From UHGV virus genome UHGV-0147920: DNA of 18,766 nt; one strand, given 5' to 3'. Shown piece by piece: positions 3,380-12,003 of this stretch; within the stretch, counting starts at the first letter, position 1, and each line of letters begins with the position of its first letter. The notes under the pieces are model-generated. The model was given only the letters and a program-made list of their open reading frames with translations. It searched no databases and was not told the DNA's origin. Source of the DNA: a virus. A program made the translations under genes and the position numbers.

Positions 3380-3809
3380 TGCCGTCACGGTGCTGAAAAC
3401 CAGCCCCGAGATGCTGCGGATATTCGTGGATAACGGGAGTATTGCCTCCACACTGGCGACGTCGCTGTCATTCGAAAAGCGTTACACGCTCAACGTGATT
3501 GTGACCGACTTTACCGGTGATTTTGACCTGCTCATCGTGCCGGTGCTGGCGTGGCTGCGGGAAAATCAGCCAGACATCATGACCACCGACGCAGGCCAGA
3601 AAAAGGGCTTCACGTTTTATGCAGACATCAACAATGACAGCAGCTTTGATATCAGCATCAGTCTGATGCTGACCGAGCGCACGCTGGTCAGTGAGGTGGA
3701 CGGTGCGCTGCATGTGAAGAATATCCCGGAACCTCCGCCGCCGGAGCCGGTCACCCGCCCGGTGGAGCTTTATATCAATGGTGAACTGGTGAGCAAGTGG
3801 GATGAATGA
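3342..3809 (+). CDS. R: tail completion protein R (P2 gpR-like)
   Basis: 155 aa; length, position after the lysis cassette and overlap with S (ATGAATGA) match P2 R. Confidence 0.85.
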   Translation: MLKPDSLRRALTDAVTVLKTSPEMLRIFVDNGSIASTLATSLSFEKRYTLNVIVTDFTGDFDLLIVPVLAWLRENQPDIMTTDAGQKKGFTFYADINNDSSFDISISLMLTERTLVSEVDGALHVKNIPEPPPPEPVTRPVELYINGELVSKWDE

Positions 3810-4254
3810 GTTTAAGCGTTTTGAAGACCGGCTGACCGGACTTATTGAATCGCTGTCACCGTCAGGGCGTCGGCGACTGAGTGCCGAACTGGCGAAACGT
3901 CTGCGGCAGAGTCAGCAGCGCCGGGTGATGGCACAGAAAGCCCCGGATGGCACACCCTATGCGCCACGCCAGCAGCAGAGCGCCAGAAAAAAGACTGGCC
4001 GTGTTAAGCGAAAAATGTTTGCGAAACTTATCACCAGTCGTTTTTTGCATATCCGCGCCAGCCCGGAACAGGCATCAATGGAGTTTTACGGCGGGAAGTC
4101 ACCGAAAATCGCCAGTGTGCATCAGTTCGGTCTGTCGGAAGAAAACCGGAAAGACGGTAAGAAAATTGATTATCCGGCGCGTCCTCTGCTCGGCTTTACC
4201 GGTGAGGATGTGCAGATGATTGAAGAGATTATCCTGGCTCACCTTGAGCGTTAG
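3802..4254 (+). CDS. S: tail completion protein S (P2 gpS-like)
   Basis: 150 aa from ATG 3802 to TAG 4252-4254; basic central region; follows R with a 4-nt overlap as in P2. Confidence 0.85.
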   Translation: MNEFKRFEDRLTGLIESLSPSGRRRLSAELAKRLRQSQQRRVMAQKAPDGTPYAPRQQQSARKKTGRVKRKMFAKLITSRFLHIRASPEQASMEFYGGKSPKIASVHQFGLSEENRKDGKKIDYPARPLLGFTGEDVQMIEEIILAHLER

Positions 4255-4283
4255 TTTTATCCAGGCAGAGGCTGATGCGCAAT

Positions 4284-4320
4284 TAAACATTGAGCGGCTG
4301 TGCAGGTCGCTCAATGTTTA
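4284..4320. terminator. putative bidirectional terminator hairpin between convergent S and the minus-strand cargo gene
   Basis: Perfect 12-bp inverted repeat AAACATTGAGCG (4285-4296) / CGCTCAATGTTT (4308-4319), extendable by a T-A pair at 4284/4320, with an 11-nt loop. It lies exactly between the two convergent stop codons (4254 and 4326). The U-tract is short on both strands. Confidence 0.45.
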
Positions 4321-4325
4321 GAGGA

Positions 4326-5111
4326 TTATGAGTGGTTTTTATTTGATGATTTGTATTCTACAACTTTTTTATTGGCGTAAAGGAATTTTGTATATGACAG
4401 AAGTATAACCAGACCTGAAGTGAAATAGACGAGGGATATTATTAATAATGTTTTTCTGTGGCTGTTATTATCTTTAATCTCCTGACTTAACCATTCGGAG
4501 TCCTCCTCGTTTAGCTGTAAGAGCTTATTGCAGGCGATTGCAGGAAGTGTGTCTGTTACAAAAGTGTTCTGCAGTCTCTTGCAATCGGCAATGCTAAAAG
4601 CTTTATAGAACTTATCTGTTTTATTGTCGGAGAACAAAAGAACCTTGTCATTATAAACATGGTACATCATATTTTTATATGGTATGGCTATAGCATCCTC
4701 TACTATGGCAGATTGCTCGTTGTGTATGCAACATGCGAAGGTAATATAAAGAATTCCGGCCAGGACTGCACTCATTGTTTTTGTGATGCATGGCGGTTCT
4801 GTTATGTCTCCCCAGAAGCGAGTAAGGAAAAAATCCGATGTTTTTAGTTTTCCATCAATCAACCCCTGCTGTATCATTTTCACATCTTTGATGCCTGATA
4901 CATTGATTCCGTTAATTATTTTAAATAGTTGAATGTCGCGCCACTCGCGGTCCAGTCTTTTTAATTTTTTATCTGAATATCCAAATTTGAAATAATGTGC
5001 AATAAGCCTCATAAGGTTACTTTTACCAAAGCTAAAAAATGCTAATACTACAAAGACCAAAAGATACAAGACGATTAGCTCCCACACATTAGTCACATTA
5101 TAGCTGACCAT
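4326..5111 (-). CDS. hypothetical low-GC membrane protein (cargo/moron at the S-V junction, P2 orf30 position)
   Basis: 261-aa ORF on the minus strand with a strong AAGGAG ribosome-binding site about 6 nt upstream of ATG (rc of 5118-5123). About 32-35% G+C in sampled lines versus about 58% in flanking tail genes. Predicted TM helices at residues ~10-28, ~113-131 and ~220-240. No family assigned. Confidence 0.75.
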   Translation of the reverse strand: MVSYNVTNVWELIVLYLLVFVVLAFFSFGKSNLMRLIAHYFKFGYSDKKLKRLDREWRDIQLFKIINGINVSGIKDVKMIQQGLIDGKLKTSDFFLTRFWGDITEPPCITKTMSAVLAGILYITFACCIHNEQSAIVEDAIAIPYKNMMYHVYNDKVLLFSDNKTDKFYKAFSIADCKRLQNTFVTDTLPAIACNKLLQLNEEDSEWLSQEIKDNNSHRKTLLIISLVYFTSGLVILLSYTKFLYANKKVVEYKSSNKNHS

Positions 5112-5126
5112 TACGCTCTCCTTGAA

Positions 5127-5146
5127 TGTTGTCTGGTGGTTCTACA
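5127..5146 (+). promoter_or_regulatory. candidate late-promoter activator (Ogr-type) dyad upstream of V
   Basis: TGTTGT-N11-ACA (TGT 5130-5132, ACA 5144-5146) in the 83-bp gap between divergent genes. The same TGTTGT-N11-AC architecture recurs upstream of FI. Spacing is 11, not the 12 I recall for P2 Ogr boxes, and the V ATG is only about 57 bp from the dyad centre. Confidence 0.25.
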
Positions 5147-5194
5147 AATGAATCCAGATAGCATAACTTTTATATATTGTGCAATCTCACATGC

Positions 5195-5830
5195 ATGAAC
5201 ACTCTCGCAAATATTCAGGAACTCGCGCGCGCACTGCGCAACATGATTCGTACTGGCCTTGTCGTCGAAACCGACCTTAACGCCGGTCGCTGCCGTGTGC
5301 AGACCGGCGGCATGTGCACCGACTGGCTTCAGTGGCTGACACATCGTGCCGGGCGTTCGCGCACATGGTGGGCACCTTCCGTGGGGGAACAGGTGCTGAT
5401 TCTGGCCGTGGGCGGTGAACTCGACACGGCGTTCGTTCTGCCGGGGATTTATTCCGGCGATAACCCCGCGCCGTCTGCGTCGGCGGATGCCCTGCACATA
5501 CGTTTCCCTGACGGGGCGGTGATTGAGTATGAACCTGAAACCAGTGCACTGATGGTAAGCGGAATTAAAACGGCCAGCGTGACGGCTTCTGATTCTGTTA
5601 CCGCCACGGTGCCGGTAGTCATGGTGAAAGCGTCAACCCGCATCACCCTGGACACCCCGGAGGTGGTCTGCACCAACAGACTGATTACCGGCACGCTGGA
5701 AGTACAGAAGGGCGGGACGATGCGCGGCAACATTGAACACACCGGCGGTGAACTCTCATCAAACGGTAAGGTACTGCATACCCATAAACACCCCGGCGAC
5801 AGCGGCGGCACAACCGGGGGACCTCTATGA
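5195..5830 (+). CDS. V: baseplate spike/assembly protein V (P2 gpV-like)
   Basis: 211 aa from ATG 5195 (MNTLANIQELARALRNMIRTG...); the ORF-track TTG at 5177 was not used. Gly-rich C-terminus; overlaps the W start (ATGA). Confidence 0.9.
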   Translation: MNTLANIQELARALRNMIRTGLVVETDLNAGRCRVQTGGMCTDWLQWLTHRAGRSRTWWAPSVGEQVLILAVGGELDTAFVLPGIYSGDNPAPSASADALHIRFPDGAVIEYEPETSALMVSGIKTASVTASDSVTATVPVVMVKASTRITLDTPEVVCTNRLITGTLEVQKGGTMRGNIEHTGGELSSNGKVLHTHKHPGDSGGTTGGPL

Positions 5831-6174
5831 CTGCGCGTTATCTCGGAATGAATCGCAGTGATGGCCTGACTGTCACTGACCTTGAGCATATCAGCCAGAG
5901 TATCGGCGATATCCTGCGCACACCGGTCGGCTCGCGGGTGATGCGTCGTGATTACGGCTCGTTGCTGGCGTCAATGATTGACCAGCCGCAGACTCCGGCG
6001 CTTGAGTTGCAGATTAAGGTCGCCTGTTACATGGCGGTGCTGAAATGGGAACCCCGCGTCACCCTGTCATCCGTCACCACTGAGCGCAGTTTTGACGGGC
6101 GAATGACGGTCACGTTAACCGGCCAGCACAACGACACCGGCCAGCCACTTTCGTTAACCATTCCTGTGAGTTGA
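5827..6174 (+). CDS. W: baseplate wedge protein W (gp25-like), P2 gpW-like
   Basis: 115 aa; length and position between V and J match P2 W. Confidence 0.9.
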   Translation: MTARYLGMNRSDGLTVTDLEHISQSIGDILRTPVGSRVMRRDYGSLLASMIDQPQTPALELQIKVACYMAVLKWEPRVTLSSVTTERSFDGRMTVTLTGQHNDTGQPLSLTIPVS

Positions 6175-6178
6175 AACC

Positions 6179-7087
6179 ATGCCGATTATCGACCTGAACC
6201 AGCTACCCGCACCGGATGTGGTCGAGGAGCTGGACTTTGAAACCATTCTTGCCGAACGCAAGGCGACACTGATTTCCCTTTACCCGGAAGACCAGCAGGA
6301 GGCGGTCGCCCGTACCCTGACACTGGAATCTGAGCCTCTCGTCAAACTGCTGGAGGAAAATGCTTATCGTGAGCTTATCTGGCGTCAGCGTGTGAATGAG
6401 GCTGCGCGGGCGGTGATGCTGGCCTGTGCCGCCGGTAATGACCTTGATGTGATTGGTGCCAATTACAACACCACGCGCCTGACTATCACCCCGGCAGATG
6501 ATTCGACCATCCCGCCGACACCGGTAGTGATGGAGTCTGACACCGATTATCGTCTGCGTATTCAGCAGGCGTTTGAAGGTTTAAGCGTCGCCGGGTCGGT
6601 GGGTGCCTATCAGTATCATGGACGCAGTGCTGACGGGCGTGTCGCGGATATCTCTGTCACCAGTCCGTCTCCGGCCTGCGTCACTATCTCCGTGCTGTCA
6701 CGTGAAAATAACGGCGTCGCATCCGAAGACCTGCTGGCCGTGGTGCGTAACGCCCTTAATGGCGAGGACGTCAGACCGGTGGCCGACCGCGTGACCGTGC
6801 AGTCTGCCGCCATTGTTGAATACCAGATAAACGCCACGCTTTACCTTTACCCTGGTCCCGAAAGCGAACCCATCCGCGCGGCCGCCGTGAAAAAACTGGA
6901 AGCGTATATCACGGCACAGCACCGGCTGGGGCGCGACATCCGTCTGTCTGCCATTTATGCCGCTTTGCATGTGGAAGGTGTGCAGCGTGTCGAACTGGCT
7001 GCACCACTGGCCGACATCGTGCTCAACAGTACGCAGGCGTCTTTCTGTACCGAATACCGCGTCGTGACCGGAGGCTCGGATGAGTGA
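6179..7087 (+). CDS. J: baseplate protein J (P2 gpJ-like)
   Basis: 302 aa starting MPIIDLNQLPAPDVVEELDFETILAERKA...; length and position match P2 J; overlaps the I start. Confidence 0.9.
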   Translation: MPIIDLNQLPAPDVVEELDFETILAERKATLISLYPEDQQEAVARTLTLESEPLVKLLEENAYRELIWRQRVNEAARAVMLACAAGNDLDVIGANYNTTRLTITPADDSTIPPTPVVMESDTDYRLRIQQAFEGLSVAGSVGAYQYHGRSADGRVADISVTSPSPACVTISVLSRENNGVASEDLLAVVRNALNGEDVRPVADRVTVQSAAIVEYQINATLYLYPGPESEPIRAAAVKKLEAYITAQHRLGRDIRLSAIYAALHVEGVQRVELAAPLADIVLNSTQASFCTEYRVVTGGSDE

Positions 7088-7610
7088 TTCGCGACTGCTG
7101 CCGACCGGCTCATCACCGCTTGAGGTCGCCGCCGCAAAAGCCTGTGCGGAAATTGAAAAAACGCCGGTCAGTATTCGTGAGCTGTGGAACCCGGACACCT
7201 GTCCGGCAAATCTGCTGCCGTGGCTGGCGTGGGCGTTTTCGGTCGACAGGTGGGATGAAAAGTGGCCGGAAGCGACAAAACGCGCCGTTATCCGCGATGC
7301 GTATTTCATCCACTGTCATAAAGGCACTATAGGTGCAATCCGGCGTGTGGTGGAGCCGCTCGGCTATCTCATCAACGTGACGGAGTGGTGGGAAAACAGT
7401 GACCCGCCCGGCACCTTCCGGCTTGATATTGGTGTACTGGAAAGTGGCATCACAGAGGCAATGTATCAGGAAATGGAACGGCTGATTGCTGATGCCAAAC
7501 CTGCAAGCCGTCATCTTATTGGCCTGAATATTACCCGGGACATTCCCGGCTACCTGTTCGCCGGTGGTGTGGCTTACGACGGCGATGTAATTACGGTTTA
7601 CCCCGGATAA
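7080..7610 (+). CDS. I: baseplate protein I (P2 gpI-like)
   Basis: 176 aa; length and position match P2 I; followed by GAGGA (7612-7616) and the H start. Confidence 0.9.
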   Translation: MSDSRLLPTGSSPLEVAAAKACAEIEKTPVSIRELWNPDTCPANLLPWLAWAFSVDRWDEKWPEATKRAVIRDAYFIHCHKGTIGAIRRVVEPLGYLINVTEWWENSDPPGTFRLDIGVLESGITEAMYQEMERLIADAKPASRHLIGLNITRDIPGYLFAGGVAYDGDVITVYPG

Positions 7611-7620
7611 GTGAGGAATA

Positions 7621-9939
7621 ATGAGCACAAAATTCAAAACCGTTATCACCACTGCCGGTGTAGCAAAGCTGGCAGCGGCAACCGCACCGGGAGGGCGGAA
7701 GGTCAACATTACCACGATGGCCGTCGGGGATGGCGGTGGTAAATTGCCTGTCCCGGATGCCGGACAGACCGGGCTTATCCATGAAGTCTGGCGACATACG
7801 CTGAACAAAATCAGCCAGGACAAACGAAACAGTAATTATATTATCGCAGAGCTGGTTATTCCGCCGGAGGTGGGCGGTTTCTGGATGCGTGAGCTTGGCC
7901 TGTACGATGATGCGGGAACGTTAATTGCCGTGGCGAACATGGCCGAAAGTTATAAGCCAGCTCTTGCCGAAGGCTCAGGGCGTTCGCAGACCTGTCGCAT
8001 GGTCATCATCGTCAGCAGTGTGGCCTCGGTGGAGCTGACCATTGACACCACAACGGTGATGGCGACACAGGATTACGTTGATGACAAAATTGCAGAGCAC
8101 GAACAGTCACGACGTCACCCGGACGCCTCGCTGACCGCAAAAGGTTTTACTCAGTTAAGCAGTGCGACCAACAGCACGTCTGAAACACTGGCCGCAACGC
8201 CGAAAGCGGTAAAGGCCGCCTATGACCTTGCTAACGGGAAATATACCGCACAGGACGCTACCACAGCGCGAAAAGGTCTTGTCCAGCTCAGTAGTGCCAC
8301 CAACAGCACGTCTGAAACGCTTGCGGCAACGCCAAAGGCGGTTAAGACAGCGTATGACCTTGCTAACGGGAAATACACTGCACAGGACGCCACTACAGCG
8401 CGAAAAGGTCTTGTCCAGCTCAGTAGCGCCACCAACAGCGATTCTGAAACGCTTGCGGCAACACCAAAGGCGGTTAAGACAGCGTATGACCTTGCTAACG
8501 GGAAATACACTGCACAGGATGCCACCACGGCGCGAAAAGGTCTTGTCCAGCTCAGTAGCGCCACCAACAGTGATTCTGAAACCCTCGCGGCAACGCCAAA
8601 AGCAGTGAAGTCTGCCTATGACAATGCTGAAAAACGTCTTCAGAAAGATCAGAACGGTGCGGATATTCCGGGAAAGGATACCTTCACGAAAAATATCGGT
8701 GCCTGTCGTGCTTATAGCGGCGCTTTGAGCACTGAAGCCGGAAACTGGACAACCGCTCAGTTTATTGAATGGCTGGATTCCCGTGGTGCATTTAATCATC
8801 CGTACTGGATGTGCAAAGGCTCATGGTCATATGCAAATAACAAAATCATTACGGATACCGGATGTGGTGATATCCACCTGGCTGGTTGTGTCGTCGAGGT
8901 CATGGGAACTAAATCTGCAATCACTATCCGAGTGACCACGCCGACAACATCAAGTGGTGGCGGTACAACCAGCGCGCAATTCACTTACATTAATCATGGG
9001 GACGGCTACTCCCCCGGCTGGCGTCGTGACTGGAATCGTCAGGGCGACTCAATGACCGGAACGATTAATCAGGATGGCGGAAGCCAGAATGCCTATATGT
9101 CTACGGCCTTATGTTCAGGCACCAGAGGCGGCAAAAAATATCTCAGAAAGTTTCGTGGTGGAGAAGGAGACACTATCTGGCATGAAACAGTACAGGGCGG
9201 GGTAATTCGCTGGGCGACAGGAAACTATGACGCTCAGGAAGAATTATCACTCAGCTCCGCTTATGGTCTCCGTTCAAGAGGTGAGATTACATCACTCAGT
9301 GCTAATGGTCTGCGCATTGCTTATGGCAATTATGGATTCTTTATCAGGAATGATGGCGGCAGCACATATTTAATGCTGACGGCCTCTGGCGATAAATTTG
9401 GGACATGGAACGGTTTAAGACCGCTGACTATCAATAACGCCAATGGCGGAGTGTCAATGGGGCATGGCCTGAGTGTTACAGGTGATATTGTCTCAAGTAC
9501 CAAAGTACGTGCCGGTAGCGGGAAAAAGTTCACGGTCAGCAGCAGCAATACATCCACGAAGGAAGCCGCATTCAATTTGTGGGGAAACTCAAGTCGTCCT
9601 GTGGTGGCTGAATTAGGTGATGATGCAGGCTGGCATTTTTACAGTCAGAGAAATACAGATAACAGCATCACTTTTGCTGTTAACGGGCAGGTATCACCAT
9701 CTAACTATAGTAATTTTGATTCACGCTATGTCCGGGATATCCGGCTTGGTGGTGCTGCCACATACAAACCTGCGAACAATGGCATGACATGGACACATCA
9801 GGCACCGTCCGGGTGTGTATATTCCGGCATTATTGTTCAGGATACCGGCTCAAACTCTGCCGATAACATTGGTGGCATATATTACAGACCGGTGCAGAAA
9901 TACATTAACGGGACATGGTATAACGTAGCGCAGGTATAA
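7621..9939 (+). CDS. H: tail fibre protein H (P2 gpH-like, with expanded internal repeats and a divergent distal domain)
   Basis: 772 aa. The N-terminal ~170 aa (MSTKFKTVITTAGVAKLAAATAPGG...) matches the virion-attachment part of P2 H as I recall it. It is followed by 44-aa tandem repeats and a lower-GC distal domain ending ...YINGTWYNVAQV. Confidence 0.9.
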   Translation: MSTKFKTVITTAGVAKLAAATAPGGRKVNITTMAVGDGGGKLPVPDAGQTGLIHEVWRHTLNKISQDKRNSNYIIAELVIPPEVGGFWMRELGLYDDAGTLIAVANMAESYKPALAEGSGRSQTCRMVIIVSSVASVELTIDTTTVMATQDYVDDKIAEHEQSRRHPDASLTAKGFTQLSSATNSTSETLAATPKAVKAAYDLANGKYTAQDATTARKGLVQLSSATNSTSETLAATPKAVKTAYDLANGKYTAQDATTARKGLVQLSSATNSDSETLAATPKAVKTAYDLANGKYTAQDATTARKGLVQLSSATNSDSETLAATPKAVKSAYDNAEKRLQKDQNGADIPGKDTFTKNIGACRAYSGALSTEAGNWTTAQFIEWLDSRGAFNHPYWMCKGSWSYANNKIITDTGCGDIHLAGCVVEVMGTKSAITIRVTTPTTSSGGGTTSAQFTYINHGDGYSPGWRRDWNRQGDSMTGTINQDGGSQNAYMSTALCSGTRGGKKYLRKFRGGEGDTIWHETVQGGVIRWATGNYDAQEELSLSSAYGLRSRGEITSLSANGLRIAYGNYGFFIRNDGGSTYLMLTASGDKFGTWNGLRPLTINNANGGVSMGHGLSVTGDIVSSTKVRAGSGKKFTVSSSNTSTKEAAFNLWGNSSRPVVAELGDDAGWHFYSQRNTDNSITFAVNGQVSPSNYSNFDSRYVRDIRLGGAATYKPANNGMTWTHQAPSGCVYSGIIVQDTGSNSADNIGGIYYRPVQKYINGTWYNVAQV
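8143..8625 (+). repeat. 132-bp in-frame tandem repeat array (about 3.6 copies) inside tail fibre gene H
   Basis: Copies start at 8143, 8275, 8407 and 8539 (exact 132-nt period). Each encodes G(F/L)(T/V)QLSSATNS(T/D)SETLAATPKAVK(A/T)AYDLANGKYTAQDATTARK. Copies 2 and 3 differ at only a handful of positions. Confidence 0.9.
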
Positions 9940-9942
9940 TTT

Positions 9943-10470
9943 ATGCAGCATTTGATAAATATAACGGCGGGTAATCCAAAAACAGTTGAACAATATCAAT
10001 TGACAAAGGACTTTGATGTTGTCTGGTTTTTTACAGAAGATGGTAAGAACTGGTACGAAGAACAAAAGTATTTTGCTGATGACACGATAAAAATAGCGTA
10101 CGACAAAGATAATATCATCCGCTATGTGGAAAAGGATGTGACAGCTATCAGACCGGATGGATTAAGTGTTGTTGAAGTGCCGGATATTACTGCTAACCGA
10201 CGGGCGGACATTTCAGGGAACTGGATGTTTAAGGACGGTACAGTGATTAAACGAATTTATACGGCAGAGGAATTGCAGCAGCAGGCAGAAAATCGGAAAG
10301 CCAGACTTCTTGCAGATGCTGAATCCGTGATTTTGCCGCTGGAGCGCGCTGTCAGGCTGAATATGGCAACAGATGAGGAGCGCAGTCGACTGGAGGCATG
10401 GGAACGCTACAGTGTTCTGGTCAGTCGTGTGGATCCTGCAAATCCTGAATGGCCGGAAATGCCGCAATAA
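9943..10470 (+). CDS. G: tail fibre assembly chaperone G (Tfa family)
   Basis: 175 aa immediately after H. The N-terminal two-thirds are low-GC and the C-terminal ~60 aa are high-GC, the usual Tfa mosaic pattern. Confidence 0.85.
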
Positions 10471-10584: not shown

Positions 10585-12003
10585 CTACATCGGGCTCTTA
10601 TATGGGGAATGAGAGTTTTTGAAACGCGGTTCTTCATGCTTCGGACTGTAAGTTCTTGCATGATTATCTATCACAACTTTACTTCCAAGAATATCTCGAG
10701 CTTCTCCTAACGACCACACAGTAGAAAGATCATTAGTCAAATTTCGATAGAGAGCACGAAACCCCTTGGGTTTTTTAAGATCATATAAGAAATCAGGAAC
10801 TTTAACTTTAAAATTAAAGGTCGGTAGTTTCGGAAGGGAATTAATAGCCGCAACAGTATTGTATACATGTACAAGCTTAGTTACAGGTACACCTTGTCTA
10901 GTCTTGAGCCCATACTTAGTTCGAATATAATCTGATTCTTTCGATACTTCAGTAAGCAATGCTCTTACTGACTTATTAGCTTGAGGCAATTCATTTTCAT
11001 CAAACAAGCGCTTTATTTCTCGCATTTTCTCACGGGCCCTTACAAATTCGTTGTTGTCCCTTATGTTATAAGCAGCTTCAACAATACAACTTGGATCACC
11101 AGTTTCTTTTGCGAGCCATGCCGAAAATAAAGGAAGCGAAGTTGCTGTTGCTACAGCTTTACCACCAGAATGAATATCAATGAGATCATGACTTAACGAA
11201 GTGGAAAAGTTTTCTACAATATGTTTAGCATAGTCAAAACCATACTGACAGTTTTGGCTTAAATATGTCTGTTGATACGCCTGACGTAATGGATATAAAA
11301 AAGTATCTGCTTGAAGGTACTTAGCTGTGAGAGAATAAAATACTGCCCGATTAGCCAGCCATACAAGCGAAGCCACGAATGCTTTGATTGCATCTGATGC
11401 TTCACCAGCAGATGTGCCATCCCCCCATTTTGCTCCGGGAACTTTGTACCCCTTGCGAATAGGGTTGCCAAATCGATCGAGGAGTTCAACATCGCCATTT
11501 GTTCTATTACCAGACTCAGCAGCATCACGCAGTTCTGAAAAAATGGCAGCAGCAATGTTACCATATTTTTCAAACTCCTTACCTCCATCAGATAAGTTCT
11601 TCAGTGTTAGATGATAAACACTTGAACTAATGTCCCATGTACATATGATATGTGTCTGAAGAAGTTCAATTAGTTTTTTAAAATCGTCATTAACAAATGT
11701 TCCACCACGAATTTTAGGTTTCAATGCATCAGATATTTTTTTTGCTTCACTTTCAATTTCATCCAACCCATATTGTGCTTTATCAAGAAATAATATCTCT
11801 CTGAAACTTGAAATCCTACTCTCACGGTACTCTGGAATATAATCATCAACCGCGATAACGCGATCATAGAACAAAATAGACTGTATATAGTTCTCAAATG
11901 CTATTATGTCTGTATCTACTGAGTCCTTCGATCTTGTTTTTACTTTCCCCTCGATTCTTTGGACTGCAGTTAGAGTTGAATTATCAATCAGTGCGTATGT
12001 CAT
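10585..12003 (-). CDS. hypothetical low-GC cargo protein at the G-FI (Z/fun) junction; candidate single-gene anti-phage/exclusion function
   Basis: Uninterrupted 472-aa ORF on the minus strand (ATG at rc 12001-12003, stop at rc 10585-10587) with AAGGAA about 6 nt upstream. About 32-37% G+C in sampled lines versus about 58% backbone. No TM segments, no clear Walker A and no R-x(4-6)-H motif. Flanked by 115-bp and 410-bp non-coding spacers. Confidence 0.8.
   Translation of the reverse strand: MTYALIDNSTLTAVQRIEGKVKTRSKDSVDTDIIAFENYIQSILFYDRVIAVDDYIPEYRESRISSFREILFLDKAQYGLDEIESEAKKISDALKPKIRGGTFVNDDFKKLIELLQTHIICTWDISSSVYHLTLKNLSDGGKEFEKYGNIAAAIFSELRDAAESGNRTNGDVELLDRFGNPIRKGYKVPGAKWGDGTSAGEASDAIKAFVASLVWLANRAVFYSLTAKYLQADTFLYPLRQAYQQTYLSQNCQYGFDYAKHIVENFSTSLSHDLIDIHSGGKAVATATSLPLFSAWLAKETGDPSCIVEAAYNIRDNNEFVRAREKMREIKRLFDENELPQANKSVRALLTEVSKESDYIRTKYGLKTRQGVPVTKLVHVYNTVAAINSLPKLPTFNFKVKVPDFLYDLKKPKGFRALYRNLTNDLSTVWSLGEARDILGSKVVIDNHARTYSPKHEEPRFKNSHSPYKSPM

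Follow-up and report, generated by a model that had tools for sequence, protein, structure and literature searches.

The orf30 gene at the S-V junction of P2-like prophages: AT-rich cargo encoding a predicted inner-membrane protein with a tentative role in phage exclusion

There is a class of phage membrane proteins that act in superinfection exclusion, and examples of these are T4 Imm, P22 SieA and HK97 gp15. Phage P2 has had orf30 on its map since the 1990s as a gene that is 'nonessential, function unknown'. In the P2 record (AF063097), it is labelled 'nonessential', with the putative O-operon terminator on one side and the V promoter's activator-binding site on the other. Its product has been listed as 'unknown', and the orf30 locus, the TO region and the Z region are the three sites of horizontally acquired genes in P2-like phages (PMC3091744). 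R18C, a P2-like phage, has a different open reading frame (ORF) at the orf30 locus (PMC6823313), and two recent hotspot studies do not treat the slot between genes S and V (PMC9122126; bioRxiv 10.1101/2024.10.15.618418). Here, we analyze the orf30 gene found in an 18,766-nucleotide stretch of viral DNA (UHGV virus genome UHGV-0147920), which we refer to as the window. The gene lies on the minus strand at 4326-5111, between the tail gene S and the baseplate gene V. Orf30 is already known as an entity, and the present finding is not a discovery of the gene. It is nonetheless a clearly delimited orphan, whose genomic address is kept with unusual fidelity.

On sequence evidence, the window gene is the orthologue of P2 orf30. 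The two products are 80.5% identical in amino acids over all 261 residues, and the S-V slot, the opposite-strand orientation, the terminator and the V-promoter neighbours are all common to both genes. Thus, the suggestion in the first-pass annotation that this is 'possibly the orf30 homologue' was correct. P2 Orf30 (AF063097 / NC_001895, AAD03281.1, phrog_2407) is, like the window protein, 261 residues long, and it represents an allelic variant with a nonsynonymous divergence (dN) of 0.10 and a synonymous divergence (dS) of 0.24. The differences are concentrated in the first and second transmembrane helices (TM1 and TM2). In PHROGs, phrog_2407 is matched at full length (residues 1-261 of 261, E 3.8e-136), and its function is given there as unknown. 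The window protein matched no family in Pfam or NCBIfam. By tblastn, the protein is present in 21 of 50,697 phage records, all of which are of P2-type phages that came from Escherichia coli or were plated on Yersinia pestis. The copies in two Yersinia phage records, vB_YpM_46 and VB-YPM-4, are identical across residues 1-253. Scans of Pfam, PHROGs and NCBIfam gave no match to holin, spanin, endolysin or virion-protein families. A structural or lysis match, which the first-pass annotation had named as the outcome that would speak against its reading, was thus looked for and did not appear, and the transmembrane helices are confirmed. A holin or lysis role was rejected, since there is no family match and orf30 is antisense to the lysis operon.

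That the ORF is a real gene and not a chance reading frame follows from its conservation in 29 aligned relatives, with identity as low as 18%, and from a dN/dS of 0.23-0.35 in the loops of its product. The coding sequence has an ATG start and 261 codons plus a stop in the ORF list, and its assignment draws on this list, the identity to P2 Orf30, phrog_2407 and dN/dS. A Shine-Dalgarno sequence, AAGGAG, was read directly from the minus strand at 5118-5123, six nucleotides before the ATG. The first-pass description of an AT-rich minus-strand ORF with an AAGGAG ribosome-binding site therefore holds, with the motif running from 5123 to 5118 and a G+C content of 0.360 for the ORF. This compares with 0.370 for the interval 4255-5194 and 0.538 for the remainder of the window, and the composition profile falls abruptly at about 4150 and returns at about 5200. 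The interval is exactly the 940-bp intergenic region from the S stop (4254) to the V ATG (5195). When it is aligned with the empty-slot prophage of E. coli EC26, in which S and V are separated by 66 bp, similarity stops at the S stop codon and restarts at the V ATG. Since the alignment breaks at these two codons, the whole 940 bp is the cargo unit, and this AT-rich module (4255-5194) carries its own version of the V promoter region. Orf30 is absent from close relatives with clean boundaries, its base composition is unlike that of its surroundings, and it has a predicted terminator. By these marks, it is a self-contained accessory ('moron') gene. The earlier proposal of lysogenic-conversion cargo is in turn supported by the foreign composition, the presence/absence polymorphism of the slot, the private terminator hairpin and the retention of the gene in decayed prophages.

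The orf30 product is predicted with good support to be a 30-kDa inner-membrane protein that has three helices and one domain on each side of the membrane. An AlphaFold run on five near-identical sequences (predicted local distance difference test score, pLDDT, of 48) was discarded, and the model used here was built on a 29-sequence alignment (mean pLDDT 81, predicted template modelling score 0.70). Kyte-Doolittle analysis gives hydrophobic segments at residues 9-29 (peak 2.54), 111-131 (peak 1.75) and 219-242 (peak 2.21), each of which forms a long helix in the model. Of the two to three transmembrane helices claimed at first pass, the helices themselves stand and their number is three, not two, by both the hydropathy windows and the model. 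All protein features are encoded on the minus strand. TM1 (5025-5087; residues 9-29, model helix 6-28) is a predicted N-out signal anchor, as no basic residue comes before it. That it is a cleavable signal peptide was rejected, since the first 29 positions are without a basic residue. Loop 1 (4782-5024; residues 30-110) is predicted from its charge, its motif and the model to be a cytoplasmic helical domain, with model helices at 30-40, 48-67, 74-86 and 91-94. TM2 follows (4719-4781; residues 111-131, hydropathy and model helix 109-134). Loop 2 (4458-4718; residues 132-218) is predicted from the model, its cysteines and its charge to be a periplasmic alpha/beta domain, with four strands (141-173), two helices and the cysteine pair C177/C194. 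The last feature is TM3 (residues 219-242, hydropathy and model helix 202-260) with a basic cytoplasmic tail (residues 243-261), and together they are encoded at 4329-4457.

Mean net charge over 29 family members is +5.8 for loop 1, about 0 for loop 2 and +2.6 for the tail, and the tail of the window protein has four lysine or arginine residues against one aspartate or glutamate. Because of this charge pattern, and the lack of a basic residue before TM1, the sequence points to a topology in which the N-terminus is out, loop 1 is in, loop 2 is out and the C-terminus is in. Loop 1 carries the motif D59-x-Q-L-F-K/R-x3-G68-I-N-V-x4-D76, plus G87. In the 29-member alignment, G68, G87, C194 and I212 are invariant, D76 (28/29) and K254 (27/29) are nearly so, and N247 is found in 22/29. 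All 29 members have two cysteines in loop 2, no more and no fewer, and the pair probably forms one periplasmic disulfide. Between E. coli alleles, dN/dS is 0.41-0.53 for orf30 overall and 0.10-0.21 for V. When it is resolved by region and measured against the more diverged alleles, it is 0.23-0.35 in the loops and about 1 in TM1 and TM2; for loop 1, against two such alleles, those of P2 and of E. coli B/P24A7b, it is 0.23-0.28. Thus, both loops are under purifying selection.

Orf30 belongs to a family that is much wider than its close alleles. A word-indexed protein search returned four clusters only, at 75% identity or more, and an exhaustive HMMER search reached the remote family. It gave 42 representatives, and about 20 of them are full-length proteins of 250-270 residues with 18-33% identity (about 20 subfamilies). 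All are in phrog_2407. The G+C content of every family member is 30-35%, in backgrounds of 0.43-0.57. Six of the ten sampled subfamilies (P0006, P0008, P0025, P0022, P0027 and P0033) have the gene as an opposite-strand neighbour of V in a P2-like prophage. The opposite-strand arrangement between S and V is also present in loci L017, L018, L020-22, L025, L027 and L028. Because homologues at 20-33% identity occupy the S-V slot of other P2-like prophages, sometimes with extra small genes alongside, sequence comparison identifies orf30 as an old and fast-diverging resident of this junction and not a random one-off insertion. In locus L027, a decayed P2-like prophage with a truncated baseplate gene J, two tandem orf30 paralogues (6001-6771 and 6900-7658) lie by V.

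Other contexts are away from V. In a Pantoea genome (L006, 10001-10979), a 186/P2-like prophage has a family gene between its integrase and its attachment-site repeat. The repeat is 89 bp long, reproduces the sequence of the rplS 3' end and the bases right after it, and is a putative attachment site. In a second Pantoea genome (L009, 9364-10777), only an integrase fragment and an intact family gene are left at that site. The L010 subfamily is chromosomal, where it adjoins LysE/LysR genes and has no phage genes nearby. On short metagenomic contigs (L023, 66-752 and 991-1743), a distant member is divergent from a gene of the DsbA/thioredoxin family. This DsbA-family neighbour fits the conserved periplasmic cysteine pair, on contigs that are too short to judge. 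No partner gene recurs over the contexts examined. Among described families, the nearest is the uncharacterised DUF6216 (PF19723) of about 270 residues, which is similar in length to the orf30 family. Five distant orf30-family members align with it collinearly below its 27.3-bit gathering score; for example, residues 3-204 of P0006 align with profile positions 7-218, and the best score is 24.3 bits, for P0034. The window protein, P2 Orf30 and the E. coli B copy do not match DUF6216 even at E<=1, and it is at best a sister group.

The S-V junction is present in 1,588 of 5,426 complete E. coli genomes, and about 460 of the 1,588 carry this type of orf30. At most of the other junctions the slot is short and empty, and unrelated genes occupy a few. 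The P2 remnant that E. coli B carries has truncated S and portal genes and has kept orf30 whole; this copy and the one in P2_4A7b, a live phage, differ by a single amino acid. Together with L027 and the Pantoea integrase fragment, this makes three decayed prophages with intact family genes, which suggests that the host benefits. The remnant in E. coli B corresponds to L005 / L014 (E. coli B-RalR, NZ_CP117043.1, 2,091,000-2,112,000), and its orf30 product is WP_000490543.1. We found no other ORF of the orf30-family or DUF6216-like type in it. In the same remnant, the old/tin slot contains an ABC-three-component system and an AAA ATPase, and the Z/fun slot contains a family-2 glycosyltransferase and a small ORF that ends in about 11 tandem copies of an SQPA peptide.

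The closest parallels to orf30 in P2 itself are old, tin and fun(Z), which are likewise nonessential cargo, rich in AT, gained by horizontal transfer and inserted at a fixed junction of P2-like genomes. Unlike Orf30, which is predicted to be a membrane protein, their products are soluble proteins with known targets. The old/tin and fun(Z) hotspot slots hold very diverse unrelated systems (PMC9122126), whereas the S-V slot is mostly empty or occupied by one protein family. The superinfection-exclusion class of T4 Imm, P22 SieA and HK97 gp15 resembles orf30 in that each is a phage-borne single gene for a small inner-membrane protein, dispensable and variable between close relatives. However, the orf30 product is larger, and the model predicts two folded soluble domains, one on each side of the membrane.

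The control of orf30 is closely tied to that of its neighbours. A perfect hairpin (4284-4320) stands between the convergent stops of S and orf30, with a folding energy of -28.1 kcal/mol (z -3.7 against shuffled sequence) on the plus strand and -20.5 kcal/mol (z -3.3) on the minus strand. It corresponds to P2 9397-9433, which is annotated as a 'putative rho-independent terminator for O operon'. From its folding and this annotation, it is a probable two-way terminator common to S and orf30. On the other side of the gene, a divergent control region of 83 nucleotides (5112-5194), recognised from the P2 annotation and from its conservation between alleles, is common to orf30 and the V late operon. 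This region is 95-100% identical between alleles whose coding DNA is 86-93% identical. By collinearity with P2, where the activator-binding site is annotated at 10239-10266, the late-activator site is at 5126-5153, with TGT-N11-ACA at 5130-5146. The orf30 Shine-Dalgarno sequence is three nucleotides away, and therefore any orf30 promoter must overlap the V promoter. An element of the GTTGTGTG type on the V strand is kept in distant loci.

We infer that orf30 serves the lysogen rather than virion production, because the gene is nonessential in P2, is antisense to both late operons, is absent from most relatives and is kept in three decayed prophages. We tentatively favour a role for Orf30 at the lysogen envelope, most likely in excluding other phages, though our confidence in this reading stays somewhat below an even balance. 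In this reading, orf30 is opposite-strand cargo inserted behind the late operon whose last gene is S and ahead of the late operon whose first gene is V. The gene would not be needed for phage production and would probably be transcribed while the late operons are silent. Its product would then act at the envelope of the lysogen and exclude other phages in the manner of superinfection exclusion. Here, the periplasmic domain would meet the tail tip or ejection proteins of an incoming phage, or a host membrane protein that they use, and this contact would block genome entry. Genes that are in conflict with other phages typically diverge fast while they keep a fixed position. Acquired DNA that is rich in AT is a preferred target of H-NS. 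With a G+C content of 36%, orf30 is a likely H-NS target and may be kept at low expression. Silencing by H-NS is plausible because of this AT-richness, and it would also explain why no phenotype is recorded. A wider proposal is that phrog_2407 is an unrecognised single-gene anti-phage system of the inner membrane, which has its own fold, is the signature occupant of S/V as an overlooked fourth cargo slot in enterobacterial P2-like phages, is normally silenced by H-NS and is kept by hosts after prophage decay. We regard this as possible and hold it with considerable reserve.

Several observations weigh against a role in phage exclusion. The weakest link in the argument is orf30 expression in lysogens: a sigma-70 promoter scan gave no minus-strand match upstream of the ORF, and in a cross-locus comparison of the region upstream of orf30 the best hexamer pairs reached 6/12 and none was kept between loci. 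No database links orf30 to phage exclusion. The defence models of PADLOC-DB 2.0 gave 0 families at E<=1. The orf30 product showed no likeness in sequence, family or fold to characterised exclusion proteins, and in structure searches the model matches no solved or viral structure, known exclusion proteins included. The genes to which the classical exclusion phenotypes of P2 lysogens map are old, tin and fun(Z), and orf30 is not among them (PMC3091744; bioRxiv 10.1101/2024.10.15.618418). Most P2-like prophages are without orf30. In addition, a simple periplasmic gatekeeper would not need the conserved cytoplasmic domain of 80 residues.

This cytoplasmic domain could instead sense a phage product, if Orf30 were an abortive-infection or toxic membrane effector that stays silent until infection and then, by a pore or depolarisation, kills the cell before the invader completes its cycle. 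A multi-helix inner-membrane protein encoded as single-gene prophage cargo would suit such a role, and the AT-richness fits the need to silence a toxic gene. One preprint reports that immunity systems can be toxic and are H-NS-silenced (bioRxiv 10.64898/2026.09.05.749240). However, simple pore formers do not typically have three helices in each monomer, or a folded domain in the periplasm with a conserved disulfide. PADLOC, Pfam and fold comparisons also showed no likeness to effectors of the RexB type or to any other known effector, and there is no sensor partner gene, so that we consider an abortive effector unlikely. The predicted membrane location and periplasmic domain would also fit a lysogenic-conversion factor of the envelope that is unrelated to phages, such as a protein that gives immunity to a secreted effector or to a membrane-targeting bacteriocin or tailocin, or one that serves in stress or colonisation. 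For this, one can point to copies that stay intact in prophages that have decayed or in chromosomal surroundings free of phage genes (L010, L009), to the one member that adjoins a DsbA-family gene, and to a very weak colicin-K-immunity match in one member (E 0.11). This match is not significant, and no toxin gene lies alongside in any context. Since, in six of the ten subfamilies sampled, the gene is bound to a single junction in a single phage lineage, which argues for a phage-centred role, a factor of this kind also seems improbable to us.

A phage-centred role need not be directed at other phages. Orf30 could be an accessory factor in the phage's own cycle, in lysis timing, entry of its own genome or interference with the satellite P4. 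The gene keeps a fixed place by V over very divergent homologues, lies between the lysis-tail operon and the baseplate operon, and has a control region that is tightly shared with the V late promoter. We nevertheless give an own-cycle factor only a slight chance. The P2 record calls the gene 'nonessential', and most P2-like prophages have an empty slot and are otherwise complete; late transcription would oppose orf30, which is antisense to both late operons; and the gene survives in remnants that are unable to make phage. The last alternative is that the protein has little function. Either the AT-rich DNA itself would matter, for instance as a spacer, bound by H-NS, that keeps the S terminator and the V promoter insulated from each other, or the ORF would be decaying cargo. 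The non-coding ends of the module are 94-100% identical whereas its coding DNA is 86-93% identical, and dN/dS of about 1 in TM1 and TM2 against the more diverged alleles would agree with this. But the loops are under purifying selection (0.23-0.35), and the frame, length, three helices, motifs and cysteine pair persist down to 18% identity, with a confident predicted fold. In empty-slot phages, 66 bp suffices. We believe that a role of the DNA without the protein is very improbable. Exclusion of other phages at the lysogen envelope is thus the reading that we retain, tentatively.

Overall, the window represents the part of a P2-like phage genome that holds the lysis, tail and baseplate genes, and its DNA is about 94-96% identical to P2 and relatives. 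The lysis genes Y, K, lysA, lysB and lysC of P2 are in their usual places upstream. The orf30 module is flanked by tail completion gene S (3802-4254, plus strand; ORF list, collinear with P2 gpS) and by baseplate spike gene V (5195-5830, plus strand), whose true ATG at 5195 was placed by alignment to the V genes of P2 and E. coli prophages. A second AT-rich ORF (10585-12003, minus strand; about 38% G+C, 472 residues) is flanked in the window by G, the tail-fibre assembly gene, and FI, the sheath gene. This site is the classical Z/fun hotspot. The 472-residue product gave no match in Pfam, PADLOC or NCBIfam, and no tblastn match in the 50,697 phage records.

In other strains, the S-V slot has other occupants. 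In strain CD45 (L003, 859-1932, minus strand), there is an AT-rich gene for an uncharacterised 357-residue protein with two C-terminal hydrophobic segments. In ECC-1470 (L004, 773-1513, plus strand), the slot is occupied by an AT-rich gene for a 246-residue same-strand protein of the R18C type with a weak HNH-like motif. Neither these occupants nor the additional genes in L025 and L028 are related to orf30, and all are uninformative in that they neither favour nor undermine the reading of this slot as a defence hotspot. In the old/tin slots of two prophages that carry distant orf30 homologues, there are genes of defence type, with HEPN plus GmrSD_N in one (L018, 19687-20789) and a HEPN/RES-domain protein in the other (L021, 19292-20704).

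About one in 12 complete E. coli genomes carry this allele group, and the E. coli B lineage includes BL21. Thus, any activity of orf30 could have a bearing on phage experiments and phage therapy that involve common strains. The predicted topology, the periplasmic cysteine pair, the cytoplasmic motif, the confident model, and the natural alleles and paralogues all provide handles for experiments. If Orf30 is a true exclusion protein, it would represent a new mechanism at the level of the membrane; otherwise, there would still be a lysogenic-conversion function that is worth finding.

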